This document shows, piece after piece, positions 34,398-63,943 of a stretch of DNA of 64,000 nt. The notes beneath the pieces are model-generated. The model was not told the origin of the DNA, made no database searches, and saw only the letters and a program-made list of their open reading frames with translations. The DNA lies in the IMG/VR virus record IMGVR_UViG_3300028840_006907, positions 96,001 to 160,000 of that record. The stretch is one strand, 5' to 3'. Both the position numbers and the translations under genes were made by a program. The stretch comes from a virus. Each line of letters starts with the position of its first letter. Positions within the stretch are counted from its first letter, which is position 1.

Positions 34398-34420
34398 ATT
34401 TACATAAAGAAAGAAGTAGT

Positions 34421-35309: not shown

Positions 35310-35503
35310 AAGTTTCATTCCATTTTTTATGGTATGACTTCTGGGTCGGGTTCTTTTGGGATCAAAAGAAACGAATTTTGTACTTTTGCCCATTACCATG
35401 TGCCGTTATTAAAATGAAATTCAGGAAAAGGAAAATTGATAAAGGTTTTCGACATCCAAAATTAAGCTTCTTTTATAAAGTTTTTAAAGGGAAAAAAGAA
35501 TAA
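35306..35503 (+). CDS. hypothetical protein
   Basis: 65 aa ORF. Confidence 0.35.
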   Translation: MKVSFHFLWYDFWVGFFWDQKKRILYFCPLPCAVIKMKFRKRKIDKGFRHPKLSFFYKVFKGKKE

Positions 35504-35557
35504 CTATTTGTGCTGTAATAAAGATGGGATTTTAATTGTAGAAAAAGTTATAGGATT

Positions 35558-36142
35558 ATGATGAGTGAAGCTCGTAAAAGTTATGCTAAACGTTCATTTA
35601 TTATAGGTAAATTTAAATATATCTTTAAAATATATGTTACTGAAGAACTAATATTTTCATCAGAGGATCTATTCCCTTTAAGGGATAAGACTATGATAAC
35701 ATTTTTTAGAACGAATTCTTATATTGAAACAGCAAAACAAATGAATATCTCAATTCCTGAATTAAAGAAAAAGATCTTAAATACTATAGAATTACTTGGA
35801 GAAGTTAGATCATTCTATTTAACGAAAAAACTTGTTAGGCATAATAAAAAAAGTAAAGATTGTAATTTAGGAACTTATAGAACAAAAAGAATAAGAGTAA
35901 GTGAATATAAAAAACCATTAGTTGAAGAATTCAGATGTAATATTAAGAGGTATCAAAATATAATGGGTAAATTTTTGAGCCCTTTAAAAAAGGATGTTAT
36001 GGAATTAATATTGAAAAACGGCTCTTATTTAAAAACAGCTAAAAGATTGAATATAACACCCAAAAAAGTCAGAAATGAGCTTGTGGGAATAGTTAAATTA
36101 CTTAAAAAGGTGAAAAAGACTGATTGGATTATTCCATCATAG
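35558..36142 (+). CDS. DNA-binding protein with two HTH repeats (sigma-70 region-4-like)
   Basis: 194 aa; repeated YIETAKQMNIS / YLKTAKRLNIT helix-turn-helix-like segments. Confidence 0.5.
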   Translation: MMSEARKSYAKRSFIIGKFKYIFKIYVTEELIFSSEDLFPLRDKTMITFFRTNSYIETAKQMNISIPELKKKILNTIELLGEVRSFYLTKKLVRHNKKSKDCNLGTYRTKRIRVSEYKKPLVEEFRCNIKRYQNIMGKFLSPLKKDVMELILKNGSYLKTAKRLNITPKKVRNELVGIVKLLKKVKKTDWIIPS

Positions 36143-36328
36143 AAAAGAGATATTATGACCATATGTCCTTATTGTAATGAACAAAGAAGTTTAGAGCATG
36201 ATAATTCATGTGTTCTCTGGAAACGAAGAATATACATAGGTTTTACGAATGCCCTGATGTGCCTTTTCGGGATACTTTTAATATTTGGTCTAATGTTTCT
36301 TGTAATAAAGTATGGTTGAAAGATTTAT

Positions 36329-36410
36329 GGCCGAGTGGCAGAATTGGCAGACGCGCTAGATTTAGGATCTAGTTTCGAAAGAATTGGAGGTTCGATCCCT
36401 CTCTCGGCTA
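36329..36410 (+). tRNA. tRNA-Leu (anticodon TAG), type II
   Basis: Hand fold: acceptor GGCCGAG/CTCGGCT, loop TTTAGGA, long variable arm. Confidence 0.8.
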
Positions 36411-36438
36411 TTTAAAGAATTCTTTAAAGGTAAATAAG

Positions 36439-36741
36439 ATGAGAACTTATGGACAAATAGTAGATGATGTAAAAAAGGTTTCAGGGCCTCAATTAGTGGC
36501 TTTGTTCTGCGTCATAGCAGGTGAGTGTATAAAAAAGAAATGTTTCAATCCTGGTGGGATGAAAACAACTATTGCCAGAATAGAAAACAGAATTGCTGAA
36601 GAAATGGGTAAAGAAGAACCTAAACCTAAGATAGCGGAATTAACGTGTGGAAGTTGTGGAGCCACTTACACTTTAGATACGAATTATATACATCGTACAT
36701 GTGGCTTACGGGGCTGTAAAGGTAAGTTACATAAATTATAA
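36439..36741 (+). CDS. zinc-ribbon protein
   Basis: 100 aa; CGSCG...CGLRGC. Confidence 0.45.
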   Translation: MRTYGQIVDDVKKVSGPQLVALFCVIAGECIKKKCFNPGGMKTTIARIENRIAEEMGKEEPKPKIAELTCGSCGATYTLDTNYIHRTCGLRGCKGKLHKL

Positions 36742-36749
36742 ATAAAAAT

Positions 36750-36833
36750 GATCGGGTGGAGGAATTGGGATACTCAGCAAATTTAAGCTTTGCTGTCCTT
36801 TGTGACATGCGGGTTCGATTCCCGCCCCGATTA
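36750..36833 (+). tRNA. tRNA-Leu (anticodon TAA), type II
   Basis: Hand fold: acceptor GATCGGG/CCCGATT, loop TTTAAGC, long variable arm. Confidence 0.8.
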
Positions 36834-36846
36834 TTATATAATAATT

Positions 36847-37323
36847 ATGGTTTACAAAAATTGTAGAACATACGGCCCTTATGAAGGTAAAGATGGTAGA
36901 CTAAGAGTATGTGTAGTTTACCCTGATTTGAGTAAAAGAACAGTATCATATCCTAAATATCTTATGGAGAAACATTTGAATAGATATTTAGAAAAGAATG
37001 AAACAATAGATCATAAAGATGAAAATCCTTTAAATAATAAATTAAGTAATTTGAATATTCTTATTAAAGGTGATCATTGCCGTAAACATGCTAAGAGATT
37101 GTTACCTAGAAGTTTTAGCTGCCCTCAATGTAAGAAACCGTTTGTTTTATCAGGACGAAGATTACATGATGCTATACAAAACAGAAAAAGAGGTAAAGTG
37201 GGTCCTTTTTGTAATAAAAGATGTGGGGGAATATACGGAACAGATGTTCAAAATAAAAGAATAGAAGTTTTAGATGTGATTCAAATACCTGTTGAATATG
37301 AGCCTAAAATAAAAGAGATATAG
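36847..37323 (+). CDS. HNH homing endonuclease
   Basis: Trimmed to ATG after tRNA-Leu; IDHKDENPLNNKLSNL HNH_3-like motif. Confidence 0.7.
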   Translation: MVYKNCRTYGPYEGKDGRLRVCVVYPDLSKRTVSYPKYLMEKHLNRYLEKNETIDHKDENPLNNKLSNLNILIKGDHCRKHAKRLLPRSFSCPQCKKPFVLSGRRLHDAIQNRKRGKVGPFCNKRCGGIYGTDVQNKRIEVLDVIQIPVEYEPKIKEI

Positions 37324-37325
37324 AC

Positions 37326-37637
37326 ATGAATTTATATTGTCCAAAATGCAAGGAGCGTCGTGTTGCCCAAGTAGGTGCAGGGGCTTCTATAATGGTAAAT
37401 GGTAAACCTGCTGATTATAGCATTTTAAAAGGAATTATGAGATGCGGTGAGTGTGGTAGCTCATTGGTAGCAGAAGAAGATTTAATAGAATACAATCCTC
37501 ATAAATGTTTACCTGTTGGGTTTTCTTTTTGTGAAGGGTTTTGTCCACAGAAGACAGAAGATGGTAAATGCGGGTTTGATAAGTATGAGTTGTTAAGTTG
37601 TCCTTATGATTTAGGTAATCGTAATTGTAATTGTTAA
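37326..37637 (+). CDS. Cys-rich zinc-binding protein
   Basis: 103 aa with many Cys (CPKCKE, CGECG, CNC). Confidence 0.45.
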   Translation: MNLYCPKCKERRVAQVGAGASIMVNGKPADYSILKGIMRCGECGSSLVAEEDLIEYNPHKCLPVGFSFCEGFCPQKTEDGKCGFDKYELLSCPYDLGNRNCNC

Positions 37638-37644
37638 TAAATAA

Positions 37645-37727
37645 GGCCGGATGTTGGAATTGGTATACAAGGACGGCTCAAACCCGTTCGCCTTTACGGT
37701 ATGGGAGTTCGATTCTCCCTCCGGCTA
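37645..37727 (+). tRNA. tRNA-Leu (anticodon CAA), type II
   Basis: Hand fold: acceptor GGCCGGA/TCCGGCT, loop CTCAAAC, long variable arm. Confidence 0.8.
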
Positions 37728-37741
37728 AATAAAGGATTCTT

Positions 37742-38035
37742 ATGAATAAAAGGTGCTTTTATACGTCAATAGTGCAAAGCCGGTATCATATCAGAGGCAC
37801 TAAGCCACAGGAACCTTATATTCATTATATAGATCCTTATCTTCGGAAGGTATTGAGATATCCTCGGTGGTTAAGATCTGATCTTAAATTTGAAGTACAA
37901 GAGCCCGTTTTATCGAAAAAAGAATATTTAAAAATAAAAATGAAAATTATAGCTAAAATTGCAAAAAAAGCTACAGAGCAAATTCAAGCTGAAGAAGATA
38001 GACGCATTATCAAATTTTTAAAGAAAGTTGCATAA
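37742..38035 (+). CDS. hypothetical protein
   Basis: 97 aa ORF. Confidence 0.4.
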   Translation: MNKRCFYTSIVQSRYHIRGTKPQEPYIHYIDPYLRKVLRYPRWLRSDLKFEVQEPVLSKKEYLKIKMKIIAKIAKKATEQIQAEEDRRIIKFLKKVA

Positions 38036-38376
38036 TGGAAAATAAAGAAATTACTCTTAGGGAAATTGGTGAATTAGCCAATAAACTAGAAGATGAAATC
38101 GGAATAAATCTGGATGCTGTGATGAATAAGTTGACTCAGGAGGTTGGAGAGTTCAATGATGCCATCCAAAAGCACAGAGGTATTCACAGCCGGTCATGGG
38201 TACCTTTGGTTAAAGTGATAGATGAGCTAGGTGATGTCCTTGTGAATTTAATATCGATAGCTTATAGGCTTGAAATTAATCCAGATGCCTTTCCTGGTAT
38301 AGCTGAGAAGACTCTTAATAAGTTCAAAGAGCGTAAGAATGATTACATAGAAAATAAGGGGATTGATAATGTATAG
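38035..38376 (+). CDS. MazG-like nucleoside triphosphate pyrophosphohydrolase
   Basis: 113 aa; EVGEF...DELGDVLVNLISIA all-alpha NTP-PPase-like motifs. Confidence 0.55.
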   Translation: MENKEITLREIGELANKLEDEIGINLDAVMNKLTQEVGEFNDAIQKHRGIHSRSWVPLVKVIDELGDVLVNLISIAYRLEINPDAFPGIAEKTLNKFKERKNDYIENKGIDNV

Positions 38377-38557
38377 TTCGATTCAAACTGATTTAGTGAC
38401 CAGACGTGTCCTTATAAATGATTATGAGGTAAAGGATTATGAGGGAATTGTAAGAGCCGTCTTTCATGATGGTAAATATTTAAAAGCCATAGTGGAAAAA
38501 GAAGGTGGTGAATTAGAACAGTGTAATGTTGTAGAGATGAAAATTATTAGAAAATAA
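38363..38557 (+). CDS. hypothetical protein
   Basis: 64 aa ORF. Confidence 0.4.
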   Translation: MIMYSSIQTDLVTRRVLINDYEVKDYEGIVRAVFHDGKYLKAIVEKEGGELEQCNVVEMKIIRK

Positions 38558-38563
38558 ATATAC

Positions 38564-38642
38564 GCCCTGTTAGCTCAGTTGGATCTAGAGCAAGGCCCTT
38601 CTAAGGCTTAGGTCGGGGGTTCGAGTCCCTCACAGGGTGCCA
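38564..38642 (+). tRNA. tRNA-Arg (anticodon TCT)
   Basis: Hand fold: acceptor GCCCTGT/ACAGGGT, loop CTTCTAA, CCA. Confidence 0.85.
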
Positions 38643-38867
38643 TTTTAATAATGCTCTAATAGCGCATTTTTAATAAATGCGAATGGAGGATTATTATGGA
38701 CGAGAACAAGAAGCATTTAATTGAAATGGCTACACTTAAGTACGGAGAAATTTATCCCACTAGTGAATGTAATTCCCTCTTAGAATGATTTACTGTAGTG
38801 GGAGGTAAGTTGTACCTCTGGTTTAATTTAAAGGATGGGAATACAAGAGTCCTGTCACGGGAGATAA

Positions 38868-39443
38868 ATGATGGGGATAAGGATTGATATTGAACATGTC
38901 CGGAAGATCCAGGAAGAACGGAAAAGAATTAATTCTATACCATTAGAACAAATTGAATGGTACGAAGATGGGATAAAATTGGAAATTCATCCCGATTTAA
39001 TAAGAGAATTTTTATTTACAGGATTAGATAATACTGACTTCATAATAAGTGAAATGTACAAAGATAAAGGTCCTTACAGAGTTTTTAAAGATTCTGAATG
39101 TGGTAGATTATTTGATGAGAAGCAAATTGTCGGGCAGAAAATGTGCTATTTAGGTGATGTTGGTTGTGGCTCAACCGGTATAGGACCTAGACCTATATTT
39201 GTTGATGCTGAAGAGTTTGTGAAAAGAGTAAGTACTTTACGATCAGAAGGTATGACAAAAGAACAGTGTAAAGAGTTTGTCTTTAAGAAACTGGAAAAGA
39301 AAGGGTGTGGTTATAATTTTAGTGGATCCTGGATTGAATGGGATAGTCTTATAGAAGCAGTTTTCGGTAATTTAGAAACTGATAACACGAATCCAGTTGT
39401 CCGGAACGTAATTGAAATAATGAAACGTGATAAGTCCCTGTAG
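38868..39443 (+). CDS. hypothetical protein
   Basis: 191 aa ORF; stop overlaps start of tRNA-Arg. Confidence 0.5.
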   Translation: MMGIRIDIEHVRKIQEERKRINSIPLEQIEWYEDGIKLEIHPDLIREFLFTGLDNTDFIISEMYKDKGPYRVFKDSECGRLFDEKQIVGQKMCYLGDVGCGSTGIGPRPIFVDAEEFVKRVSTLRSEGMTKEQCKEFVFKKLEKKGCGYNFSGSWIEWDSLIEAVFGNLETDNTNPVVRNVIEIMKRDKSL

Positions 39444-39509
39444 TTCAACAGGATAGAACATAGGTTTCCTAAACCTAGTATTGGGGTTCGAGTCCCTACA
39501 GGGATACCA
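39434..39509 (+). tRNA. tRNA-Arg (anticodon CCT)
   Basis: Hand fold: acceptor GTCCCTG/CAGGGAT, loop TTCCTAA, CCA. Confidence 0.8.
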
Positions 39510-46401: not shown

Positions 46402-47571
46402 TTATCCAAAATTAGACTTTCGGGTCAGAGGTATCTTTTTTGCAGTATCCGCAAATAGTTTTAACCCTTTCCATGAATCAATGTGGTAGGAAGTAATATA
46501 AGGTGCCTTAGGAGGTGGGCAACCACAATGCCCGTTAACTCTAACTGATCTTTTACCCTCTTTATTGGCATACATCTCCTTAGCATCTTTTAAAGGCATA
46601 TTCCCATCGACCATCCAGTAAGTCCATGCTCTTTCAAAGGTGAAACCCGGGAGTTCTCCAGAGATAGAGAAAGGAACTTCTCCGTCACCTTTTTTAGATA
46701 CAATATCAATACCGGCTAGATCAAGTTCAAGTCTGATGTAATGATCACAAGCTACCTCTCCAGCAAGATTCCCCATTGTATAACTTTCTCCATTATTGGC
46801 TAGATGCGTTTCGCATTTCTTTTTGATTTTTTTCTGATAACATTCTTCGTGGAAATATTTCCATTTTTCATAAAGAACTTCATCATTTTCTTCAATGACA
46901 TAATTTTCATCTATATTTTTTCTGCCATTTTTGTTTTTCTCATAACCATATTCTTTATCAATAGTCAGGTCAATGAGCCCCCTATTGAAAATAGTATGAT
47001 GAAATATATAGACAGTATTTTTGTCTGTGTTTCGAAGCTCTTTTTCAATTTCTGTTAAAGTTTTCCCGACGTATTTGGAGTTTATCTCAAATTGGTTAGA
47101 GTACCGTAATCTTTTGGTTTTATGGCAATACTCTACTTCCCATCCTTTATTACAGTGGGAACATTTTACATAAGCGGGAGGTAAATCATTGCCCATTGAG
47201 AATGAGATACTTATAGGATACGGCCTTTTGTTTTTTGCCCAATCAAAATCTTCTGCATCCATCTCTTCTCGGGTTAATATATTAGGGATATTTTCTTTAC
47301 TCCATCTTTCAATAAAATCCCAAAATTCTGTCTTTGTAAAAACTTTTCCTACAGGAAAATTGAAAATTTTCTCTACCGGAATAAAACCTGTCGCAGTACC
47401 TAAATTACCACACGTATCGAGATAATATCGACCTAAGACATAATATTCGTATAGTCTTTCATCACGTTTGTAACCTGCTTCGTGTCTTTCATTGATCATT
47501 TCCCAAAATGTGTTGTAAGATTTAAGTGACTTTTCGATTCCTTTAATTGTGTTATAGTCTTGTTTTTTCAT
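46402..47571 (-). CDS. hypothetical protein
   Basis: 389 aa ORF, no motif recognised. Confidence 0.5.
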   Translation of the reverse strand: MKKQDYNTIKGIEKSLKSYNTFWEMINERHEAGYKRDERLYEYYVLGRYYLDTCGNLGTATGFIPVEKIFNFPVGKVFTKTEFWDFIERWSKENIPNILTREEMDAEDFDWAKNKRPYPISISFSMGNDLPPAYVKCSHCNKGWEVEYCHKTKRLRYSNQFEINSKYVGKTLTEIEKELRNTDKNTVYIFHHTIFNRGLIDLTIDKEYGYEKNKNGRKNIDENYVIEENDEVLYEKWKYFHEECYQKKIKKKCETHLANNGESYTMGNLAGEVACDHYIRLELDLAGIDIVSKKGDGEVPFSISGELPGFTFERAWTYWMVDGNMPLKDAKEMYANKEGKRSVRVNGHCGCPPPKAPYITSYHIDSWKGLKLFADTAKKIPLTRKSNFG

Positions 47572-48599
47572 TTTACCACATGTTTAGAAGTGATTGTTTC
47601 TGCGAATTCTGGCCCCCTATCATAGTCATCAATCCATATGTTATCACAGTGCCGATTTCCTTTTTTCTCACTGCCGTACCATTGTGTCCTCCAATGTGCC
47701 TCAACTCTTATCTTATGATCCAGTTTCCATTTTCCGACACCTCCAGCTTGTTTGATACGAGTTATATCGTTATTCTTATCCTTTATATTTGAACCAACAA
47801 TAATAAATCTTTTGTTGGTAGCTTTTTCTTTCCTTTGTTCCAGTTTTCTTTTCTTGGTTTTATTTTTAATATTTTTTAATCTTGCATCAAAATCTAGTGG
47901 ATCATGGTTTTTTAAATCAGGTTTTTTGCTTGTGATATATAAAAGAGTGTTAAATACAAATTTTGCGAATTCTTCTAAATGATCAACATTTTTATATAAA
48001 TCATATTTATCTACTTCTTCCTTTTTTCTTTTTGTCTCATTTTCAATATAAATCTTTAATTGATCCTGAATTTTTCCAGGTTGCATTTCTATGTGGAAAT
48101 AAAAGGTGGTATCATTAAATGGTATGTCTGGTGTAGGTTTTAATAATGAACATGCCATTACTCTAATATGCTTTTCAGTATTGAAATCTCGAAGATAAAC
48201 GTAAAAACCATTTACAGGATGTTTACTTCCATCTATATCATTTATAGAAAAAAGACCTGGATCTATCTGTATAAAAATTTCTCTAAACGGGGATCTTAAG
48301 AAATAAGCATCAGTATTACAATTTGTTTGGGCTAGTCTTGCTGAAAGTTCTGGTGTTATATAGTATATCTGATCAGCATTATTTTTCATTTGATACATAT
48401 GAAAATATGTATTGTAAAAATGACTTATTCTTGCTGGTGAATCAAATTCAGTAAAAATAGAAGAAGTAGCATTACAAAATTGTTTGAATGTAGGATCAAA
48501 ACCAATATCGAGCATATTTTGTACTAGTATAGTTGGGGCTACTGTCTCTAGATGTTTAATAGCCAGTTCATAATGAGTTTTTGTGAAATACTTCTCCAT
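47568..48599 (-). CDS. hypothetical protein
   Basis: 343 aa ORF. Confidence 0.5.
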   Translation of the reverse strand: MEKYFTKTHYELAIKHLETVAPTILVQNMLDIGFDPTFKQFCNATSSIFTEFDSPARISHFYNTYFHMYQMKNNADQIYYITPELSARLAQTNCNTDAYFLRSPFREIFIQIDPGLFSINDIDGSKHPVNGFYVYLRDFNTEKHIRVMACSLLKPTPDIPFNDTTFYFHIEMQPGKIQDQLKIYIENETKRKKEEVDKYDLYKNVDHLEEFAKFVFNTLLYITSKKPDLKNHDPLDFDARLKNIKNKTKKRKLEQRKEKATNKRFIIVGSNIKDKNNDITRIKQAGGVGKWKLDHKIRVEAHWRTQWYGSEKKGNRHCDNIWIDDYDRGPEFAETITSKHVVK

Positions 48600-50179: not shown

Positions 50180-50255
50180 TGGGATGTCGCCTAACGGTAT
50201 GGCACCTGACTCTGGCTCAGGAATAATCAGGGTTCAAGTCCTTGCATCCCAGCCA
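50180..50255 (+). tRNA. tRNA-Gln (anticodon CTG)
   Basis: U1:A72 acceptor TGGGATG/CATCCCA, loop CTCTGGC, CCA. Confidence 0.8.
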
Positions 50256-50279
50256 ATTAACTTTAGGAAACAACAATAA

Positions 50280-50353
50280 CGGGGTGTGGCCTAGTCTGGT
50301 AAGGCGTCTGCTTCGGGAGTAGAAAATCGGAGGTTCAAATCCTCTCATCCCGA
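50280..50353 (+). tRNA. tRNA-Pro (anticodon CGG)
   Basis: C1:G72 acceptor CGGGGTG/CATCCCG, loop TTCGGGA. Confidence 0.8.
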
Positions 50354-50371
50354 TTAATAAAGGTAAAAATT

Positions 50372-50926
50372 ATGAGACCCATGATATATCCTAAAAAGAA
50401 TAGGAAAATAAAAAGACCACGAAGATCGAGACCATTAAAAAGATGTGTTCATATTGATGGAAAAGAATGGAGGTGGGAAACAACAGGTCACTGGGATAGT
50501 GATGCAGGTAGTTATGGTTGTTTAACTGATCAGAGCGTTAAAATACTTTCTCCTGATAATAAATTTTTTTCTATACGTGCTCATGAAGTAATGAAATGTG
50601 AACCGATAAGATGGGAATGTTGTGTTGGTGAAAAATTAATAACAGTTTTACCGGGGAAAGTAAAACAGTATATAATAGATAATTTAATTGATCATGATAT
50701 TTCAAGATCGTTAAGGAGACGCATTCATATAGATGGTAGAGAATGGGGTTGGCAGTTTAGTAAAGGAAATCCTGCATATCAGCTCTGTGGAGTATCTGTC
50801 CGTTCTCCTGATAATCGGTATTTATGGATTTATGCAAAAGAGTTAGGATACGAGATTAAACCATCAGTAATTAAAAAGTATATAATTGATAATTTATTAT
50901 ATCGGGGTATAGCGCAGCCTGGTTAG
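50372..50926 (+). CDS. hypothetical protein with internal duplicated ~75-aa module
   Basis: 184 aa; repeats HIDG(K/R)EW(R/G)W...SPDN(K/R)...YIIDNL; 3' end overlaps tRNA-Pro. Confidence 0.45.
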   Translation: MRPMIYPKKNRKIKRPRRSRPLKRCVHIDGKEWRWETTGHWDSDAGSYGCLTDQSVKILSPDNKFFSIRAHEVMKCEPIRWECCVGEKLITVLPGKVKQYIIDNLIDHDISRSLRRRIHIDGREWGWQFSKGNPAYQLCGVSVRSPDNRYLWIYAKELGYEIKPSVIKKYIIDNLLYRGIAQPG

Positions 50927-50979
50927 CGCGTCTGAATGGGGTTCAGAAGGTCGCCAGTTCAACTCTGGCTACCCCGACC
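50902..50979 (+). tRNA. tRNA-Pro (anticodon GGG)
   Basis: C1:G72 acceptor CGGGGTA/TACCCCG, loop ATGGGGT, CCA. Confidence 0.8.
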
Positions 50980-50998
50980 AAAGTTCTTTGAAAATTAT

Positions 50999-51274
50999 GG
51001 GGGTGTGGCAGAAGGGATATGCAGTCCTCAAAAAGTAGACAGGTCTGGGTAAAACCGGGTCATTACAGGAAGTTTGTATTCGCTACTGAAACGAAACAAA
51101 GGGAAGGTAGTGTAACGCTTACGGACTGGTGCTTGCAAGGGTTTACGGAAGACACTGACACGTTGCCTGGGATCTGGAGACAGCCCAGGAGGGTTTGTAA
51201 ATAACGGCAGGAAGTCCTTTTTCCCAATAGTGAGCTTTGGATGACTTATGCCGGTTCGAATCCGGTCACCTCCA
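50999..51274 (+). other. tRNA-like ends (acceptor GGGGGTG/CACCTCC, T-arm GCCGGTTCGAATCCGGT) enclosing ~200-nt GC-rich insert; unresolved structured RNA or intron-containing tRNA
   Basis: Acceptor complementarity and canonical T-arm at 3' end; no normal anticodon arm found by hand; GC content far above surroundings. Confidence 0.4.
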
Positions 51275-51360
51275 TCAAAATAAATTAAATAGATAGATAG
51301 GCAAACTGGCAAGCCATTTGGTTGTAATAGAAAATGTGTAGCAAGATCATAAAGACATAC

Positions 51361-51632
51361 TGGAGTGTAGCTCAGTGGCAGAGCGGGTGGCTGTCTTGGT
51401 TGGCAGCTCTTATAGGAAACTGTAAGATGAAAACTCGGTGAATTCAGGGAAACCTAAGTCTTAAACAGATATGGCAATCCTGAGCGAAGCCTTGAGAAAG
51501 GAACGTGCAGAGACTTATAGCGCCGAGCACCTAAGGTGAAAACTATGGTGATGAGATAGTCCAGGCCCTTGGGAAATCAGGGGAATTACTGTAACCACTT
51601 GGTCGGGGGTTCAAATCCCTCCACTCCAGCCA
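51361..51632 (+). tRNA. tRNA-Asn (anticodon GTT) interrupted by a group I intron
   Basis: Exon 1 51361-51394 (TGGAGTG...GGTGG-CTGT), exon 2 51592-51632 (TAA-CCACT...CACTCCAGCCA); spliced loop CTGTTAA; U1:A72 as in bacterial tRNA-Asn. Confidence 0.7.
51395..51591 (+). ncRNA. group I intron (~197 nt) in tRNA-Asn anticodon loop
   Basis: 5' exon ends in U; IGS GGCAG pairs with exon CUGU; R-like GCAGAGACTTATAGCG and S-like GAGATAGTCC elements; terminal G before exon 2. Confidence 0.65.
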
Positions 51633-51683
51633 ATTTTAAAGGGTCCTAGAGGAATTTACTTTAAAGAAAAGGAGAAAAATTAA

Positions 51684-51884
51684 ATGAGTAAAGATGAGAA
51701 ACCTGATTATTCGAAAGATTTCGATACATGTCCTTGGTGTAATAAAATACCAAAAGTATCGAAACATTTCAGATATGATGAATGGCAACTGATCCATCGT
51801 TGTGATAAATTACTTACTGTAATTAGTATGGATTGGACTGAATTAGATAGTCTTAAAAATCGATGGAATCGACCTAAGAAATGA
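51684..51884 (+). CDS. hypothetical protein
   Basis: 66 aa ORF; CPWCNK. Confidence 0.4.
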   Translation: MSKDEKPDYSKDFDTCPWCNKIPKVSKHFRYDEWQLIHRCDKLLTVISMDWTELDSLKNRWNRPKK

Positions 51885-52156
51885 CAGAATGTACTATATG
51901 TGAAAGAGAAACTCCTGAGAAATATGTGGAGAAACATCACTTGACTCCTTGTAGCCGAGGAGGAAAGGATAAGGAGAAAACACTTACTTGTATTGATTGC
52001 GGAGATCAGGTACATCGATTATTTACGAATAAAGAATTGGAGAGAGACTATTATACACTCGAAAAATTATTAGCTCATCCTAAAATCCAGAAATGGAAGA
52101 AATGGGTTAAGAATAAGAGATTCGGGATATGTATGAAACGAAAAAAGAAGAGATAA
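51881..52156 (+). CDS. small HNH-type endonuclease-like protein
   Basis: 91 aa; CTICE...EKHHLTPCSRGG...CIDCGDQVH. Confidence 0.5.
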   Translation: MTECTICERETPEKYVEKHHLTPCSRGGKDKEKTLTCIDCGDQVHRLFTNKELERDYYTLEKLLAHPKIQKWKKWVKNKRFGICMKRKKKR

Positions 52157-52163
52157 TATATAA

Positions 52164-52239
52164 CGGGCGGTCGCCTAATCTGGTATGGCACCACATTTGG
52201 GATGTGGAATAACTGGAAGTTCAAATCTTCTCCGCCCGA
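52164..52239 (+). tRNA. tRNA-Pro (anticodon TGG)
   Basis: C1:G72 acceptor CGGGCGG/CCGCCCG, loop TTTGGGA. Confidence 0.8.
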
Positions 52240-52253
52240 TATATTTTTAAATC

Positions 52254-52329
52254 AATAAGTTACTGGGATGTAGTTCAGTTGAAAGAACACCGGAATTTGG
52301 ATCCGGGGGTCGCAGGTTTGAGCCCTGCC
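52254..52329 (+). tRNA. tRNA-Gln (anticodon TTG)
   Basis: U1:A72 acceptor TGGGATG/CATCCCA, loop ATTTGGA, CCA. Confidence 0.8.
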
Positions 52330-52537
52330 ATCCCAGCCATTTAATTTTTTTATCAATATATTTACCACAAAGACGTATATTATTTATACAACTTAAAAAT
52401 AGGAATAATATATGACATAGATAAAAATACCACCCTAGATCCTCAAAATATTCAAACCTCCTTAAAACACGGTTATTATACCAAATGGTGTTATACCAAA
52501 CAGTACAATATTCATTCATTTAAACAGGAGAATAACC

Positions 52538-52837
52538 GTGATCAAAAATAGAAAATTTTTAAAATTTGAATTAAAATTAGAAGCTCAAAAATTACGAAAA
52601 ATCAAGACTGATATTAAAACCAAGCAGAGAGCTGGCCAGTATGCCGGTCATGAACAGTCCGAATTATTGACTCTTAAATGGAATTACCGCCATCGATTTA
52701 TTGCTTATTGTATGATGCGGGGTAGAGAATATAAGCAAATCGAAAGAACATGTAGAGTTGAACCAAATCATGACTGGGTAAAGGAGATCATCAATGAATA
52801 CTCCCCGCAAAAAGAAACTATACGTGCTTCTGCGTAA
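52538..52837 (+). CDS. hypothetical protein
   Basis: 99 aa ORF. Confidence 0.4.
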   Translation: MIKNRKFLKFELKLEAQKLRKIKTDIKTKQRAGQYAGHEQSELLTLKWNYRHRFIAYCMMRGREYKQIERTCRVEPNHDWVKEIINEYSPQKETIRASA

Positions 52838-53108
52838 AGATTTGGATGAAACTTATCGATGTGTTCAAGGAGGCCATGCTATTGCTGAGTATTCTCTAAA
52901 GGATTACCAGTCATTTAAAGAATGGGCAAATGGAACTCTGATTTATCTTGGAGTACCTGATTTAAAAGCTTTGGAATTATGGTTGCTCAAATTGGAACGG
53001 AAAAATATTTTTCATATCAGGTTTCATGAACCCGATCTTGGGAATGAGTTAACATCGGTAGCTTGTATAAATACAGGGAAAATTTTTAAAAGTCTTCCTC
53101 TTGCTTAA
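52794..53108 (+). CDS. possible PTH2-like peptidyl-tRNA hydrolase
   Basis: 104 aa; KLYVLLRKDLDE...GGHAIAEY weakly resembles PTH2 family. Confidence 0.35.
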   Translation: MNTPRKKKLYVLLRKDLDETYRCVQGGHAIAEYSLKDYQSFKEWANGTLIYLGVPDLKALELWLLKLERKNIFHIRFHEPDLGNELTSVACINTGKIFKSLPLA

Positions 53109-53115
53109 AGTTACA

Positions 53116-53189
53116 GCGCCTGAGGCTCTGAGGTGAGCAACTTGGACTCTAAATCCAAGTTTTTCAGGGTTCGACTCCCTACAGGCGCA
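53116..53189 (+). tRNA. suppressor tRNA (anticodon CTA, reads UAG)
   Basis: Hand fold: acceptor GCGCCTG/CAGGCGC, anticodon stem TTGGA/TCCAA, loop CTCTAAA (U33, CUA, A37), T-loop TTCGACT. Confidence 0.65.
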
Positions 53190-56029: not shown

Positions 56030-56897
56030 ATAAATTGTTCTCTTGTATAATACCAGCTATTAATGTGAGAAAAGGAGACTCCCTAAGATACTTTTCCCGA
56101 TCCTCCTTTAATTCTTTTCTGATATCTGTAGAGGATATCTTTGGTATTTTATTACCAGCATCAAAAAACTTATGTGGTTCTTTCATATACCAATTCACAT
56201 TTGGATCGCGCTTTTCTCCTTGTCTAGATACTACAATGAATGGTATCAATTTTTCAAGGTGTTCATAGTTAACCCATTTATCAAATGTATTGGCATTATC
56301 AAGTCCAATGACATAATTGAATCGGTATTCGTTTTTGGCAAAATCCTCTTCCATAAATTTATTAAGGAAATAATATGTCTCTCCAGCTAGTTCGTGAACA
56401 ATTTCATAATCGCATACTTTCATTCTCTTATCTACCTGTACATATTCTCGACACATGGCTAGCCGTAGTGATGCAGGAGCCATTTCTTTTCCATATAAAT
56501 GTCTGTAGCAGGGGATGTACCAAACTTCATCGAATAACCCTGCTTCATCGAGTAAGAATTTTCCTATAGCAAGATGGCCAGGATGGATGGGATCAAAAGC
56601 ACCCCCGATGAGCGCAACTGATACTTTCCTGCCAAGTTTACGGTATAAAGATCGGCTATTAATTTTGGTGATGTTCATTTCAACCAATTCATTAAAATCA
56701 TAACCGGCTTCATTAATCCATTGTATCAGTGTACCAAGTAGATCGCTCGTTTCATCTTTTAATCCCGTCATGGTCCTGGCTCTTGTCAATTCAAATGCTT
56801 CTTTAAGGATATCATTCAATCTGATATCAGTAGGAGTATTTCCAAAAGCTTCTGAATACGTTTTATTGATATTATTTAATAAATCTGATAAATTCAT
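56022..56897 (-). CDS. nadD: nicotinate-nucleotide adenylyltransferase (NadD/NMNAT-like) with N-terminal MazG-like extension
   Basis: 291 aa; GGAFDPIHPGHL (HxGH nucleotidyltransferase) and ISSTDIR; N-terminal ~90 aa EAFELTRARTMTGLKDETSDLLGTLIQWINEAG resembles MazG/HisE-type NTP-PPase. Confidence 0.75.
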   Translation of the reverse strand: MNLSDLLNNINKTYSEAFGNTPTDIRLNDILKEAFELTRARTMTGLKDETSDLLGTLIQWINEAGYDFNELVEMNITKINSRSLYRKLGRKVSVALIGGAFDPIHPGHLAIGKFLLDEAGLFDEVWYIPCYRHLYGKEMAPASLRLAMCREYVQVDKRMKVCDYEIVHELAGETYYFLNKFMEEDFAKNEYRFNYVIGLDNANTFDKWVNYEHLEKLIPFIVVSRQGEKRDPNVNWYMKEPHKFFDAGNKIPKISSTDIRKELKEDREKYLRESPFLTLIAGIIQENNLYV

Positions 56898-57078
56898 TTT
56901 TCAATTTCTTTTTAGGTAAATTTTTTATTATACAATCAATACAAATATCTTTACTTTTCCACTGCCCATTTTCTATAGTTCTTAATACCACCCTATAACT
57001 TTTATCTCTAATAAAGAGCCTGCTATCGTCAATATCCATTTGTTTTTTGCATATATCACATATTGTAATTTTAGCCAT
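56872..57078 (-). CDS. small zinc-ribbon protein
   Basis: 68 aa; CDICKK...CIDCI. Confidence 0.4.
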   Translation of the reverse strand: MAKITICDICKKQMDIDDSRLFIRDKSYRVVLRTIENGQWKSKDICIDCIIKNLPKKKLKNEFIRFIK

Positions 57079-57095: not shown

Positions 57096-57887
57096 TTATA
57101 TATCTAAATGGCAAATACGAGGCATTTCCATTTTATGAGCATTCTTTTCATGTCGTTCTAGATATAATTCAAGAACTTTCATTTTTCTTTTTTCTATTGT
57201 TAACATAGATTTCATCGCTTCAAGTCCTTTGATAGTTTTTAAACCACCTAATTTTTTACAAAAATCCATAGCCCATTCCAATTCAGAATATGTAGCTCCA
57301 ATCTGATCTTCATCAGTTCTGCCATCTTCCCATAATCCATCAGTAGGTTTTGCTGTTAAAATATCTGAGTTCACTCCAAGATAGGCTCCCATACCATATA
57401 CCTCAGATTTGACTAGCTCTCCTATTGGACTTATATCAACACCACCATCACCGAATTTTGTAAAGAAACCAATTCCGAAATCTTCAACCATATTCCCAGT
57501 ACCAACAACATAATAATTATGGGTATTTGCGATAGCATAAAGAGCTACCATTCGAAGACGGGATCTGGTATTAACCATGGCAAATTCATTGTAATAATTA
57601 CTATGATTAAAATTATTAAAGACAACTGAAAGATCTTCCGTATGACTGGTAACATTGGTATAGTCTTTTTTTAATTTTTCAACATGTGCTTCTGCTCTGG
57701 GAAGAATATCTTGATTTATTGGCATATGGGCACATATAACAGGTTTATAAGTTCTGGCACATAAATTTGATACAACTGCTGAGTCAATTCCACCTGAAAC
57801 TCCAACTACACAGCCATCTACATGGGATTCCTTCATGTCTCTAATAATCCAATTTACAATATGATCTGAGACTTTTTTATAGTCCAA
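57096..57887 (-). CDS. nadE: NAD+ synthetase (NH3-dependent type)
   Basis: 263 aa; PP-loop GVSGGIDSAV. Confidence 0.8.
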   Translation of the reverse strand: MDYKKVSDHIVNWIIRDMKESHVDGCVVGVSGGIDSAVVSNLCARTYKPVICAHMPINQDILPRAEAHVEKLKKDYTNVTSHTEDLSVVFNNFNHSNYYNEFAMVNTRSRLRMVALYAIANTHNYYVVGTGNMVEDFGIGFFTKFGDGGVDISPIGELVKSEVYGMGAYLGVNSDILTAKPTDGLWEDGRTDEDQIGATYSELEWAMDFCKKLGGLKTIKGLEAMKSMLTIEKRKMKVLELYLERHEKNAHKMEMPRICHLDI

Positions 57888-57899: not shown

Positions 57900-59624
57900 T
57901 TAATTCATGGCAATTGAGTATATTTTTTTATTGTCAACAAATAACACTTTCATATGTTCATGGTATAATCGCATAGATACATTAATCGGTGTATTCGTAA
58001 TATCCTTACTTCCTTTATTATTTTTAAATAGAGACATTTTATCATTATCGACAGAGATGCACATTCCAGTAGGTAATGTAATAAAATTAACTGGATGGTA
58101 ATCAATCATATCTTCCTGTTTAATATCATAGCTAGTATGGGTTTTATCAAAACAAATTGTATATTTAAAATAACTTCCCTGTTTTTCTGTGACCACTATA
58201 CAGATTCCTTTATCATACCGGGCATCAATGATTCTTTGGCCGTCCAATTCTTTTACATAAGTATTAATACATTTCCCTCTTTCGAAAGGAATAGCTAATC
58301 GTATCTTTGTGAAATCATCCTGTACAATAACACCTCGGAAAGACTTATATGATTTGCTTATTCTACATACAGTTTTAGTCGTATGAATAACTCTCTGGAA
58401 TTTTTCAAAATGATTCTCTATCAATCTTCCATTATTAATGGTGTAAATATACCCATTATACCCCATTATGTCTTCAGCTTTGATGTCGGATATTGATTTA
58501 TTATTTAAATCAAAGAACTCAGCTTTTAAATTCTTGAAATAAACTATTAAGGGATCCGCTCCATAAGCTTCACACATGCCTACTATGGTTGATTTTAAAG
58601 GTTTATGGAACTTAACCACTTTATCTTTATTCTGGTCATATATGGCTTTAGAAGTTATCACAAAGCGTTTATCATTAAAGAAGAAGATATTCCGAATCGG
58701 TTCATTTACTTCGAATACTTTTTCTACTATGAAATCACCTCTACTAGTTATAGTTCTGGCAACTGCTGCTACAACCACGACCTCGTCCGGTAATGGCGGG
58801 ATGGATCTCTCATTATTTTTAAATTCTGATACATACCATTCAAAATGTTTTTTAGGGATCACAGAATAATCTTGGCACATGGCCGGTAATGGCTTTGCTC
58901 CTTTATCAAAATTTGAGACTCCATCATCCATCCTTTTAATCCATTGTTTCGGTTTATAATCGATATGTCTACTTTTGTAAGGGTGAATACCCAGATACAT
59001 TTGATAAGTTACGACACCCCAGGAGAACCAGTCAGAGTACTCAGTAAATTGAGCATTCTTAACCTGTCGATCTCGAACACTATCCATAAGAGCATCTGCT
59101 GGGAAGCTTTTTGTTTTCCAGGCATCCACATCAATGTGATAAACGGTCTTTAAATCACCGCTAAGAAGGAAATTCATCTCATTATAATCAACTACTAGGA
59201 AGCCATTTTTATGGATGTATTGTAGGGCTTTCTGCATTTTAAGAACTAGGTCAGCTATATCTGTTGGACTTAAATGTTTATTGTCTCTGAAAGTCTTAGT
59301 AAATACTTGGCAGAGAAATTCAACTCCATCAACATATCTCATTGTAAACCCAATGGGTGTGTGGTTCCTCACTTCATATAAAGGTTCTATGGGTGACAGG
59401 ATATCATCTCGTTTTAATTCGGTCAATTCGTGTATTTTTGCTTCTGGTATCATATTTTTAGTATCATGATAAATTTTATATGCAATCCCATTTAGATAAA
59501 AAACTGTTCCAAAACCACCAGAAGCTTTATAATTATCATCAGTCAAAGTAACAATTTCTTTTGTTGTCTGAACTTTGAATGACTTCTTTATTATCGGGTT
59601 CATTTTTGTTTTCGGTAAAATCAT
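57900..59624 (-). CDS. protein-kinase-like (Ser/Thr kinase fold) protein with C-terminal extension
   Basis: 574 aa; Gly-rich loop SGGFGTVF, AYKIY Lys, catalytic-loop-like VVDYNEMNFLL, DVDAW. Confidence 0.6.
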   Translation of the reverse strand: MILPKTKMNPIIKKSFKVQTTKEIVTLTDDNYKASGGFGTVFYLNGIAYKIYHDTKNMIPEAKIHELTELKRDDILSPIEPLYEVRNHTPIGFTMRYVDGVEFLCQVFTKTFRDNKHLSPTDIADLVLKMQKALQYIHKNGFLVVDYNEMNFLLSGDLKTVYHIDVDAWKTKSFPADALMDSVRDRQVKNAQFTEYSDWFSWGVVTYQMYLGIHPYKSRHIDYKPKQWIKRMDDGVSNFDKGAKPLPAMCQDYSVIPKKHFEWYVSEFKNNERSIPPLPDEVVVVAAVARTITSRGDFIVEKVFEVNEPIRNIFFFNDKRFVITSKAIYDQNKDKVVKFHKPLKSTIVGMCEAYGADPLIVYFKNLKAEFFDLNNKSISDIKAEDIMGYNGYIYTINNGRLIENHFEKFQRVIHTTKTVCRISKSYKSFRGVIVQDDFTKIRLAIPFERGKCINTYVKELDGQRIIDARYDKGICIVVTEKQGSYFKYTICFDKTHTSYDIKQEDMIDYHPVNFITLPTGMCISVDNDKMSLFKNNKGSKDITNTPINVSMRLYHEHMKVLFVDNKKIYSIAMN

Positions 59625-60487
59625 TAATATTCCTCATTTAAATAAATAGTAGCAGTACCAACGTCATCATAATGATGCCAATTATGTTTTTTAACTTTCT
59701 TACCAAAAAAGATCATGCGCTTTTTTACAAATTCACCGGTAGTGTTTTTAAATCCAATAAATTCGGGTATTGTAATATCTAATCCTATATCTTTTTTATA
59801 ACTATCTCTGTAGGTTGATATACCATCTGTACATATTGTAACAGATAAGAGTTTATCCTTCATAATATTGGAAATTTCTTCGGAATAGATTGTATCAAAA
59901 GGTAATGAAGATTCAAGAGGATTTTCTAGCCCCTTTTCTCCTGACAAAGTAATAATTTCCCGAAAGCATTGAGGATTATCTTCACCTTTAATAGCACAAT
60001 TTTTTAAATAGACTGTTCTATCACTTATTAGATAAAATGGGGCATTTAAGGAATAATCTATTTTCATTATTAGCTGATAATTACCGCCATCTTCTTTTCT
60101 ATAATTAGCTGTAATGACACCATCACCCCATGCAAATACCAATACTCTTGAAGACAATCTTATAGTTATTAATAATGTGGCTTCCAAAGCCTTAGGAGTA
60201 ATGGGGTATATCTTTCTTATTTCATCAGCTCTTTTGTGAATGCCGTTTCCGAGATAAAATGAGAGTTCTTTCAGATTTAATCGTTCGAATAATCCAGTTT
60301 GGATACAAAATTCAATATTATATTTAGCAACATGACATAATATTTGAGCACCTACTTCAGAATGATCCGCAGAAGAACATCCATCTGCAACGATGCCATA
60401 CTCAATTCCTTTAAAAGAGCCACTTAATGCATAGTCTTGACAGACTAAATGAGTGCTTCCTTTTTCATAATATGAGTCACAGCTCAC
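59624..60487 (-). CDS. PP2C-family (PPM) protein phosphatase-like
   Basis: 287 aa; GIVADGCSS, FAWGDGV, ICTDGIS motifs. Confidence 0.6.
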   Translation of the reverse strand: MSCDSYYEKGSTHLVCQDYALSGSFKGIEYGIVADGCSSADHSEVGAQILCHVAKYNIEFCIQTGLFERLNLKELSFYLGNGIHKRADEIRKIYPITPKALEATLLITIRLSSRVLVFAWGDGVITANYRKEDGGNYQLIMKIDYSLNAPFYLISDRTVYLKNCAIKGEDNPQCFREIITLSGEKGLENPLESSLPFDTIYSEEISNIMKDKLLSVTICTDGISTYRDSYKKDIGLDITIPEFIGFKNTTGEFVKKRMIFFGKKVKKHNWHHYDDVGTATIYLNEEY

Positions 60488-60546
60488 AATTACCTCCTTT
60501 TAGTAAGCACAGAAGGCTCCATTACAGAGCCTTCCTGCAAAAATTC

Positions 60547-61314
60547 CTAGTTAAATTTGAAATCTTTAATTGGTTGTGAAGGTTGTCCGGTGCCGAGGGC
60601 ATCTGACTGTGAGCTAACACTCTGACTCATAAACTGGGCTAGTTTAGCTAATTTTGATTCAGAAACATCACCCATTGATATATATTCATCAAGTCCAGCT
60701 TCTTCTTTGAAATCCGTAAGTAATTTCTTTAAATCTTTTCTACCATCATTAACACCAATAAGAATGGTACGAACTGATTCCATCGCTTCATCTTCATCAT
60801 TCATACTGTCTAATGTTTCTTTTATCATTTGTGGAGTAACACCGAATTCGGGGCAATTATCTTCACCATCAGTAATTATGAAAACCATTCCATTAGCATT
60901 TACGATCCTTTCAGAATTATAGAGCTTATTTATATAATCTCTCATGACGTCCAAACCACAAAGAGTCGCTTGAAAAAGATTTGTAGCATTCGCTGGAAAG
61001 ATCACATCGTCGTAATTATCTAGTTCAATATCACTCAGAAGCATCCATCCATGAATTTCCTGGATACCTCCATTATTAAAAGCGATAACACGTAATAAAA
61101 GATTCAAAGCTCGTGGGGAGCCTTTACATGACCCTACACATGCTTTTATCATTTTTTCCAGACCTGTTTTAAACCCTTTCACTGAATAGGTTTTATCAAC
61201 GATTATAGTGACTGCTGTATATTCTGTAGCTCCAAGTCTATCAACTTTAACTTTTGTATAATCGAATTTATGGAGAGATACATCGGAATCACTTACATTC
61301 ATAAACTTAGGCAT
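60547..61314 (-). CDS. vWA-domain protein (TerY-like)
   Basis: 255 aa; VFIITDGEDN and degenerate MIDAS IIVDKTYS. Confidence 0.55.
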   Translation of the reverse strand: MPKFMNVSDSDVSLHKFDYTKVKVDRLGATEYTAVTIIVDKTYSVKGFKTGLEKMIKACVGSCKGSPRALNLLLRVIAFNNGGIQEIHGWMLLSDIELDNYDDVIFPANATNLFQATLCGLDVMRDYINKLYNSERIVNANGMVFIITDGEDNCPEFGVTPQMIKETLDSMNDEDEAMESVRTILIGVNDGRKDLKKLLTDFKEEAGLDEYISMGDVSESKLAKLAQFMSQSVSSQSDALGTGQPSQPIKDFKFN

Positions 61315-62201: not shown

Positions 62202-62444
62202 TTAAAGCAACCCTTTTATATCAGCCCTTTCAATATCAGTTCTGTTAAAAAAGTTCTTATTTCCTTTTTTTCTAGGTTCTGGTAATACCCCGCATTTTAT
62301 ACGACGGTATATAGTTTGTTTGGATATATTATATTCAGTACAAATATCTCTCAAACTAATTTCATCTCTATGATGTTTGTAAAGTATTTTAGCTACTTCT
62401 TCTGCTATAGCTTTTGCTAATTTTTTAATATCTGCATCATCCAT
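62202..62444 (-). CDS. small HTH DNA-binding protein (AlpA/MerR-like)
   Basis: 80 aa; ISKQTIYRRIKCGVLPEP. Confidence 0.5.
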   Translation of the reverse strand: MDDADIKKLAKAIAEEVAKILYKHHRDEISLRDICTEYNISKQTIYRRIKCGVLPEPRKKGNKNFFNRTDIERADIKGLL

Positions 62445-63712: not shown

Positions 63713-63943
63713 TTGGAAACTGAAAAACATATAAAAACGATTATAGCTGAGATTTTATGCCTTAAAGAAGATGAAATAATACCGCAAGCATCTATCGTAG
63801 ATGATCTTGGTGCAGATTCACTAGATGAAATAGAAATTTTAATGGCTTTAGAGGATGAACTTGATATAGATATTCCTGAAAATGAAGCTCAGAGAATGAA
63901 AACAGTTAAGGATATCTTAAAATATATTGAAGAAATCACCTAA
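63713..63943 (+). CDS. acyl carrier protein-like
   Basis: 76 aa; DLGADSLDEIEIL phosphopantetheine-attachment motif. Confidence 0.65.
   Translation: METEKHIKTIIAEILCLKEDEIIPQASIVDDLGADSLDEIEILMALEDELDIDIPENEAQRMKTVKDILKYIEEIT

Follow-up and report, generated by a model that had tools for sequence, protein, structure and literature searches.

A conserved nicotinamidase-vWA-PP2C-kinase gene module in the NAD+ salvage block of a huge phage

We analysed a 64,000-nucleotide (nt) stretch of viral DNA (positions 96,001 to 160,000 of IMG/VR record IMGVR_UViG_3300028840_006907; the whole stretch is called the window below). In it, three consecutive minus-strand genes for a von Willebrand-type (vWA) domain protein, a PP2C-type phosphatase and a Ser/Thr protein kinase are flanked by a nicotinamidase-like gene and by nadE, the gene of NAD+ synthetase. 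Nicotinamidase, vWA, PP2C and kinase constitute one conserved four-gene module, which recurs in viral contigs and in bacterial genomes, in many of them near further genes of NAD+ salvage. The original prediction, which was made from the letters of the window, had placed the three genes exactly where we find their open reading frames (ORFs) and had described them as a triad embedded in an NAD block. Their linkage to NAD genes stands, while the real unit is a tetrad that includes nicotinamidase: the nicotinamidase gene is the tightest partner of the vWA gene, so that the triad is not merely embedded. Two alternatives had also been offered, phospho-regulation of the NAD pathway or an independent signalling unit, and the conserved synteny favours the first of them. 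We put the probability at about 0.55 that the module is a phospho-switch functionally coupled to nicotinamidase and NAD salvage, and rate any particular wiring of such a switch lower.

Conservation of the four-gene module in phages and bacteria

The viral set comprised 80 contigs encoding the full-length kinase, which were scanned with family profiles, and 73 of these loci extend 9 kb or more upstream of the kinase. PP2C is present in all 73, vWA is found in 71, and nicotinamidase, located upstream of vWA, in 70. The four genes are colinear in the order nicotinamidase-vWA-PP2C-kinase, and on one strand, in 66 of the 73. Reciprocally, a search anchored on nicotinamidase gave 65 viral loci, with vWA in 62, PP2C in 61 and kinase in 61 of them. 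The cellular set was obtained by scanning one genome per GTDB species, which yielded 131 relatives and 80 genome loci, 42 of them fully covered. These 42 loci contain nicotinamidase (40, upstream of vWA), vWA (41) and PP2C (36); the tetrad order is kept in 33, and the packing is tighter than in phages. The tightest junction is that of nicotinamidase and vWA, with median gaps of 25 (viral) and 9 nt, and the two genes are adjacent in most loci.

Other genes of NAD+ salvage are frequent neighbours of the module. At least one of pncB, nadE and nadD lies within 10 kb in 45 of the 73 viral loci, at variable positions, and in 19 of the 42 genome loci. In the viral loci this proximity is far above what would be expected of single-copy genes, given genome sizes of several hundred kb. 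The commonest neighbour is pncB (33 of 73 viral and 19 of 42 genome loci). For example, a 413-kb phage contig has the order pncB-nadE-nicotinamidase-vWA-PP2C-kinase-NADAR-adenylyltransferase-NrtR-like (winged-helix). The arrangement is far from what chance would produce, as well over 100 independent loci show the same tetrad order. This conserved order together with the NAD neighbours indicates that the triad is tied to NAD+ salvage and is not a stray cassette.

The bacterial copies include long replicons, since 6 of the 80 genome loci, which belong to Capsulimonadaceae, Chthonomonadaceae and Spirochaetota, sit on contigs or chromosomes 2.3-6.2 Mb long. The Spirochaetota chromosome has the order pncB-nadE-nicotinamidase-vWA-PP2C-kinase-NrtR (Nudix plus NrtR winged helix), with CheR/PAS genes on one side of the locus and a Leptospira-type porin gene on the other. 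In a Capsulimonadaceae locus the tetrad is followed directly by pncB, which lies directly 3' of the kinase in several chromosomes of this family. The possibility that the bacterial copies are prophages was considered and, for the two loci examined, rejected, as their flanks hold ordinary cellular genes (CheR/PAS, Leptospira OmpL1 porin, radical SAM, ECF sigma factor and BlaR1-type peptidase). The setting in a phage NAD block that had been predicted holds for the window but is not phage-specific, for the module also occurs in bacterial chromosomes, often beside NrtR.

The largest kinase similarity cluster mixes viral and genomic kinases. A separate kinase cluster is made up of 15 loci (L134, L138, L140, L142-L144, L149, L152-L154, L157, L159, L161, L164 and L165), whose bins are labelled Patescibacteria/CPR (candidate phyla radiation), 'bacterium' or 'uncultured bacterium', and whose contigs are 7.5-455 kb long with a GC content of 0.32-0.53. 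These loci may be mis-binned huge-phage contigs, not bacterial genes.

An NrtR-like gene was detected in 47 of 165 kinase-anchored loci, nearly always on the same strand and immediately 5' of nicotinamidase or 3' of the kinase. NrtR is reportedly an ADP-ribose-responsive, Nudix-related repressor of NAD genes, and its classical targets are pncA, pncB and nadE-type genes. Its presence therefore ties the module to the NAD regulon. We know of no vWA-PP2C-kinase set embedded in the NrtR regulons described so far. In the phage of the window itself, no NrtR gene was found within 10 kb of the module; a small gene of the HTH_17 (helix-turn-helix) type lies there, between pncB and nicotinamidase, and it was seen in this phage alone among 85 loci compared. 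Because relatives often have an NrtR-like regulator instead, this 80-amino-acid (aa) protein may be a substitute local regulator.

Predicted activities of the four proteins

By family profile and conserved residues, the gene upstream of vWA is a nicotinamidase gene, and the activity is a predicted one. The window protein by itself gives only weak matches (NCBIfam PRK11609, E 8e-4; no Pfam match), so the assignment comes from the family, for which 29 members were aligned; 22 of the 29 match PF00857 Isochorismatase. The best match of the family profile in the PDB is yeast Pnc1 (2h0r, E 3.9e-16), and its ten PDB matches consist of nine nicotinamidases or pyrazinamidases (one of which, 3r2j, is titled only 'alpha/beta-hydrolase-like protein') and one cysteine hydrolase (3irv, E 2.2e-4). 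The pncA assignment of the original prediction is thereby borne out. All 29 members keep the catalytic triad (D12, K165, C215), which aligns with the motifs of Pnc1. The metal-site residues D53 and H55 and the WPxHC motif (W128, H131, C132) are also invariant, and H62 is kept in at least 90% of the members. A metal site composed of D-x-H and the histidine of WPxHC binds the pyridine nitrogen, and it separates nicotinamidases from other isochorismatase-like enzymes. The annotated PncA-like protein of phage G is not related to the window nicotinamidase at E<=1e-3. A second, more divergent nicotinamidase-like copy was observed in some loci, at 11974-12861 of L017 (beside nadD) and at 6355-7224 of L143.

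The 255-aa protein is predicted to have a vWA fold with an intact metal site of the metal-ion-dependent adhesion site (MIDAS) type. Its single sequence gave no match against Pfam. The family contains more than 500 proteins, about a dozen of which are labelled 'YegL' by JGI, and 11 of 28 aligned relatives match PF00092 VWA (best E 1.5e-6). The AlphaFold model has a pLDDT of 82.8, and its top Foldseek matches in the PDB are all vWA domains. None of the MIDAS residues (D40, S44, T111, D149) varies among the relatives. The C-terminal helix and tail, rich in serine, is likewise conserved, with S230, S232, G243, S246 and Q247 invariant.

For the phosphatase, the invariant positions are D35-G36, G121-D122-G123, G222 and D274-D275, and D18 and D221 are kept in at least 90% of relatives; with these metal-binding aspartates kept, the PP2C protein looks catalytically complete. 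Its gene has a GTG start preceded by the ribosome-binding site AAAGGAGG. The kinase gene encodes 574 aa and matches Pfam Pkinase (E 5.6e-9) over residues 56-224. K50, E66, D146, N151 and D165, which correspond to the ATP-binding Lys, the helix-C Glu, the catalytic Asp and Asn and the metal-binding Asp, are all invariant, so that the protein looks like a catalytically complete Hanks-type Ser/Thr kinase, fused to a C-terminal beta-propeller. The propeller is presumed to be a sensor or partner-binding domain. In a viral structure library just one protein matched over the whole length, an uncultured-myovirus protein with the generic name "serine/threonine protein kinase". At E<=1e-30 the kinase family contains 1,152 clusters (50% identity), and at E<=1e-3 only 4,782, which indicates a distinct clade and not generic kinase noise. 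The vWA, PP2C and kinase calls made earlier from the window alone, as well as that of the flanking nadE (Table 1), all agree with these results.

A variant of the phospho-switch reading is that the vWA protein would serve mainly as a metallochaperone or assembly factor, loading the metal of nicotinamidase as in chelatase and MoxR systems, with the kinase and the phosphatase tuning it. TerY-P, the vWA-PP2C-kinase system discussed below, has been hypothesised to be a metal-sensing phosphorylation switch, according to PMC11090510, which cites Anantharaman et al. 2012. The nicotinamidase metal site (D53, H55, H131) is kept, the MIDAS site is complete, and the two genes form the tightest pair of the module. 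However, no conserved AAA+ partner of the MoxR or chelatase kind stands beside the module in the loci compared, and canonical nicotinamidases, to our knowledge, require no chaperone. Such a loading function as the principal role of vWA appears very unlikely to us.

Relation to known systems and a possible role in NAD+ salvage

According to PMC11090510, which summarises Anantharaman et al. 2012 and Gao et al. 2020, TerY-P is a combination of a TerY-like vWA protein, a PP2C and a Ser/Thr kinase with a C-terminal zinc ribbon, with an OB-fold in stand-alone defence versions; TerY-P modules with the zinc-ribbon kinase also occur in CoCoNuT systems. The genes yegL-pphC-yegI of E. coli K-12 were taken as the reference example. 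YegI was reported to autophosphorylate on activation-loop serines, and the product of the neighbour gene, PphC, is PP2C-like (bioRxiv 10.1101/819920, 10.1101/303594). The vWA, PP2C and kinase genes of the window have the same domain types and order as yegL-pphC-yegI, and PP2C and kinase overlap by 1 nt, compared with 4 nt for pphC/yegI in E. coli B strains (10.1101/819920). The phage kinase domain is specifically YegI-like: hhalign aligned it with YegI over 310 columns (probability 97.8%, E 8.5e-13), and the kinase profile scored YegI at 38.8 bits versus 25.5 bits for the best PDB kinase. For the other two proteins the specific affinity is weak. The vWA protein matches E. coli YegL in its C-terminal half only (hhalign probability 58%, E 9.7e-5; no hmmsearch match), and PP2C hardly matches PphC (hhalign probability 32%; hmmsearch E 3.5). 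The phage vWA protein and YegL have in common the MIDAS site and, as seen by eye, the serine-rich C-terminal helix, and the tail serines S230, S232, S234 and S237 are also present in YegL.

Two described features set the module apart from TerY-P. First, the window kinase ends in a beta-propeller, not in the zinc ribbon or OB-fold of TerY-P kinases (PMC11090510); YegI, for its part, was reported to be an integral membrane protein (10.1101/819920). Second, the neighbours are NAD salvage genes and NrtR and not Ter, restriction/DNA-processing or defence genes, and nicotinamidase is a constant fourth member of the module. The predicted TerY-P likeness is therefore right as to gene order and the YegI-like kinase, but does not extend to the kinase C-terminus and the NAD context. 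The module is probably related to TerY-P. PADLOC returned no TerY-P match for the three proteins; we dismissed this null as evidence, because E. coli YegL, PphC and YegI gave no TerY-P match either.

These comparisons bear on a second reading, in which the triad would be an independent TerY-P-type cassette for stress, metal sensing or host manipulation, with targets outside NAD metabolism, and would be found with NAD genes through shared regulation or hitch-hiking. The YegI-like kinase domain fits it, as does the E. coli yegL-pphC-yegI locus, which has no NAD genes nearby. Unrelated genes often stand between the triad members in phages, and in some loci (L016, L049, L070 and L187) the kinase is distant from, or rearranged relative to, nicotinamidase. 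Hitch-hiking fails, however, to explain why nicotinamidase and vWA stay paired across kinases that are only 27-40% identical, in phages and several bacterial phyla, and the nicotinamidase-anchored search keeps the link (62 of 65 loci). We consider an independent cassette unlikely.

The salvage block of the window is predicted to encode all four steps by which the Preiss-Handler route leads from nicotinamide to NAD+, as judged from the matches of pncB, nadD and nadE and from the nicotinamidase residues and profile. By homology, the PncA-like enzyme would convert nicotinamide to nicotinate, PncB would form nicotinate mononucleotide, NadD nicotinate adenine dinucleotide, and NadE NAD+. Jumbo-phage Preiss-Handler clusters of pncB-nadD-nadE have been published as 'biosynthetic gene clusters' (Microbiome 2024, PMC11662467). 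The window likewise has pncB, nadD and nadE, together with nicotinamidase, in one same-strand array of a huge phage, and would add a huge-phage route that begins at nicotinamide itself. PMC11662467 names neither a kinase nor a phosphatase nor a von Willebrand domain among these genes; in our loci the triad of regulatory genes forms the conserved core, and salvage enzymes other than nicotinamidase are its variable neighbours.

NARP1 (Adps + Namat) and NARP2 (Nampt + Nmnat) are phage pathways that rebuild NAD+ from nicotinamide (bioRxiv 10.1101/2024.02.11.579819). The route of the window is likewise phage-encoded and would likewise start from nicotinamide, the product of defensive NADases. It would instead take four steps via nicotinate (PncA, PncB, NadD, NadE), and it comes with the kinase-phosphatase-vWA module. 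Profile searches within the block identified PncA-like, PncB, NadE and NadD proteins, and not Adps + Namat or Nampt + Nmnat. The analogy to NARP1 and NARP2 makes NAD+ rebuilding an attractive role for the route in huge phages. We found no description of the module in the literature covered, which took in surveys of NAD systems in jumbo phages and in viruses but did not extend to Anantharaman et al. 2012, the original TerY-P publication.

If the module is a phospho-switch coupled to nicotinamidase, it could operate as follows. The beta-propeller would sense a signal or bind a partner, and the kinase, with T171 as a candidate activation-loop site, would phosphorylate the serine-rich tail of the vWA protein (S230, S232, S234, S237) or nicotinamidase, while PP2C would reset the switch. 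The MIDAS site of vWA might bind the metal-dependent nicotinamidase and control its activity or load its metal. In this way the module would gate the commitment of nicotinamide to a salvage that is costly in ATP and phosphoribosyl pyrophosphate, and the phage could rebuild NAD+ from nicotinamide that host NADase-type defences or its own metabolism set free.

A different use of the same genes is conceivable, in which a TerY-P-like conflict system would have nicotinamidase as its effector. Once the propeller sensed a signal, nicotinamide or a related pyridine carboxamide would be destroyed and so denied to competitors: bacteria would block NAD+ reconstitution by phages, and huge phages would exclude superinfecting phages. 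Because the NARP pathways start from nicotinamide and need it (bioRxiv 10.1101/2024.02.11.579819), its removal would be a plausible weapon, and the complete tetrad occurs without nearby pncB, nadE and nadD in 28 of 73 viral and 23 of 42 genome loci. TerY-P-like triads, moreover, act as stand-alone anti-phage systems according to a summary of Gao et al. 2020 within PMC11090510. On the other hand, pncB, which consumes the nicotinamidase product, is the commonest neighbour of the module and directly follows the kinase in several Capsulimonadaceae chromosomes, NrtR, a regulator of NAD biosynthesis, adjoins it in 47 loci, the window holds what appears to be a complete route to NAD+, and the two bacterial flanks examined have no obvious defence-island genes. 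A weapon of this kind thus seems an improbable function, and we prefer the reading as a switch on NAD salvage.

Several points weigh against that preferred reading as well, including the stand-alone anti-phage activity of TerY-P-like triads just cited. The loci are partly redundant, 148 of 161 kinases being less than 95% identical to one another. Many phage loci have 0.4-6 kb of unrelated genes inserted among vWA, PP2C and kinase, so that the module does not require strict co-translation, and about 40-55% of loci have none of pncB, nadE and nadD within the 20-kb stretch around the module. PP2C was absent from 6 of the 42 fully covered genome loci. The nicotinamidase family has a specific insertion of about 65 residues, and its substrate might therefore not be free nicotinamide. 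The kinase targets and the contact of vWA with nicotinamidase are proposed from gene order alone. Finally, the promoter scan (52 sites versus 41.8±6.7 in shuffled sequences, near background) and the terminator scan (5 sites versus 3.8±1.8, all within coding regions) are uninformative on the operon; because they were no better than shuffles, a single operon for the block is plausible and no more.

Some bacterial loci have nicotinamidase, vWA and kinase without an intervening PP2C (L093, L098, L100, L128, L141, L147, L148, L156 and L166). From the bacterial loci that lack PP2C, the phosphatase seems to be dispensable in some lineages.

NAD+ depletion is a major theme of bacterial immunity, and phage pathways that rebuild NAD+ were discovered recently. 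In this context we tentatively suggest a broader scenario, which is doubtful at present but has more in its favour than the effector and independent-cassette readings: the module may be a widespread, signal-gated device for NAD+ salvage, often controlled by NrtR, that huge phages captured from bacteria as a third and regulated reconstitution route, able to outlast NAD+-depleting immunity of the TIR/SIR2 type. The family with its 1,152 clusters is large, and it is found on long bacterial chromosomes from metagenomes and not only in metagenomic phages. If the coupling is true, this would be, as far as we have found, the first case, in phages and in bacteria, of a Ser/Thr kinase-phosphatase-vWA switch with a genetic link to an NAD+ salvage enzyme. 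For the poorly understood TerY-P-type triads it would provide a candidate client, and an output that can be measured as nicotinamidase activity and NAD+ level, which would make their mechanism testable.

The salvage block and its setting in the window

The features of the block and of the tRNA genes in the window are summarized in Table 1.

Table 1. Coordinates of the NAD+ salvage block and of tRNA features in the window
Feature	Position	Strand	Evidence or remark
pncB, nicotinate phosphoribosyltransferase, 390 aa	62452-63624	-	Pfam NAPRTase E 9.9e-50, NAPRTase_N E 1.7e-29
Small HTH protein, 80 aa, HTH_17/MerR-like	62202-62444	-	HTH_17 E 6.3e-7, HTH_11 E 6.6e-6
Nicotinamidase-like ("pncA"), 275 aa	61327-62154	-	Family profile vs PDB, residues
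vWA-domain protein, 255 aa	60547-61314	-	AlphaFold/Foldseek, PF00092 in relatives, MIDAS residues
RNA hairpin of about 12 bp in vWA-PP2C spacer	60509-60538	-	RNA folding
PP2C-type phosphatase, 287 aa	59624-60487	-	Pfam PP2C_2 E 4.5e-16
Kinase gene, N-terminal part (about residues 1-290), Hanks-type Ser/Thr kinase domain, YegI type	58755-59624	-	
Kinase gene, C-terminal part (about residues 291-574), beta-propeller	57900-58754	-	
nadE, NAD+ synthetase, 263 aa, final step of the route	57096-57887	-	NAD_synthase E 2.6e-45; PHROG 11189 'NAD synthetase' E 2.7e-67
68-aa ORF with two CxxC pairs, zinc-ribbon-like by eye	56872-57078	-	ORF list
nadD, nicotinate-mononucleotide adenylyltransferase, 291 aa	56022-56897	-	CTP_transf_like E 1.4e-17, residues 96-261
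tRNA clusters	2426-3822, 21795-39509, 50180-53189		
Amber-suppressor tRNA, anticodon CTA (would read TAG)	53116-53189	+	

From 63624 down to 54756 all genes are on the minus strand, with gaps of -26 to 59 nt and strong ribosome-binding sites. The array is headed by pncB, whose product is the second enzyme of Preiss-Handler salvage and whose ATG is preceded by the strong ribosome-binding site AAAGGAGG. The triad genes had been described as overlap-coupled, which is true for one of their two junctions: PP2C and kinase share 1 nt (TAATG), but vWA and PP2C are separated by a spacer of 59 nt. Nicotinamidase and vWA are 12 nt apart, and so are kinase and nadE. The vWA-PP2C spacer contains the hairpin of Table 1; the surrounding 81 nt (60480-60560, minus strand) fold with -23.3 kcal/mol (z = -2.27 versus shuffles) and lack a T-tract. 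The hairpin is a possible element of transcript processing, stability or attenuation, and might lead to different expression of the genes from pncB to vWA and those from PP2C to nadD.

The product of nadD also matches NCBIfam TIGR00482 (E 3.4e-29) with 102 bits, slightly below the cutoff of 112 bits, and it has an N-terminal extension of about 90 aa to which no fold was assigned and which has no Pfam match. The start of nadD is overlapped by 26 nt by the 68-aa CxxC ORF, which has no Pfam match and was not seen in any other phage of the comparison.

The replicon of the window is a huge phage, because there are 34 tRNA genes in the window and a tmRNA at 15873-16282 (minus strand), the identical sequence was also found on contigs of 388-470 kb, and the relatives are huge phages. 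In GenBank phage records, relatives at protein level were found only in three uncultured huge phages of 462-595 kb, and megablast of the whole block against phage records gave zero matches at DNA level. The region is an auxiliary-metabolism neighbourhood of this phage. Other genes in the window include a sugar-nucleotidyl transferase (NTP_transferase, E 2.7e-69; 7833-8726, minus strand), a GDP-mannose-dehydratase-like epimerase (E 8.9e-68; 14655-15758, plus strand) and an Amidase_2 cell-wall amidase (17707-18627, minus strand), which are typical auxiliary genes of huge phages.

Under the standard code all nine genes of the block are full length. Eight of 52 ORFs of at least 120 aa end in TAG, among them the nicotinamidase and vWA genes. 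Fusions by read-through of TAG were considered and rejected, since only 2 (nicotinamidase) or 18 (vWA) extra residues would be added before the next stop. Given the suppressor tRNA and the TAG ends, stage-specific recoding of the stop codon is possible.

A 343-aa protein at 47568-48599 (minus strand) is labelled AcrVA2-like (PF26125) in the precomputed Pfam table and matches PHROG 6160 (function unknown) at 3e-9; a separate Pfam scan at E<=1e-5, unlike the precomputed label, gave nothing for this protein. Divergent from pncB, an acyl-carrier-protein-like gene (PP-binding) lies at 63713-63943 (plus strand), and its pairing with pncB recurs in related phages (L003, 3026-3256, minus strand; L049). 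Just past the right end of the window, flotillin/Band_7, CesT-like chaperone, PspA/IM30 and potassium-channel-like genes lie beside the NAD block (L001, 1-4825). Genes of the same four kinds stand between nadE and nadD in L003 (14236-16964). Membrane-stress genes are thus found together with NAD salvage in these two phages, the kinases of which are 59% identical.

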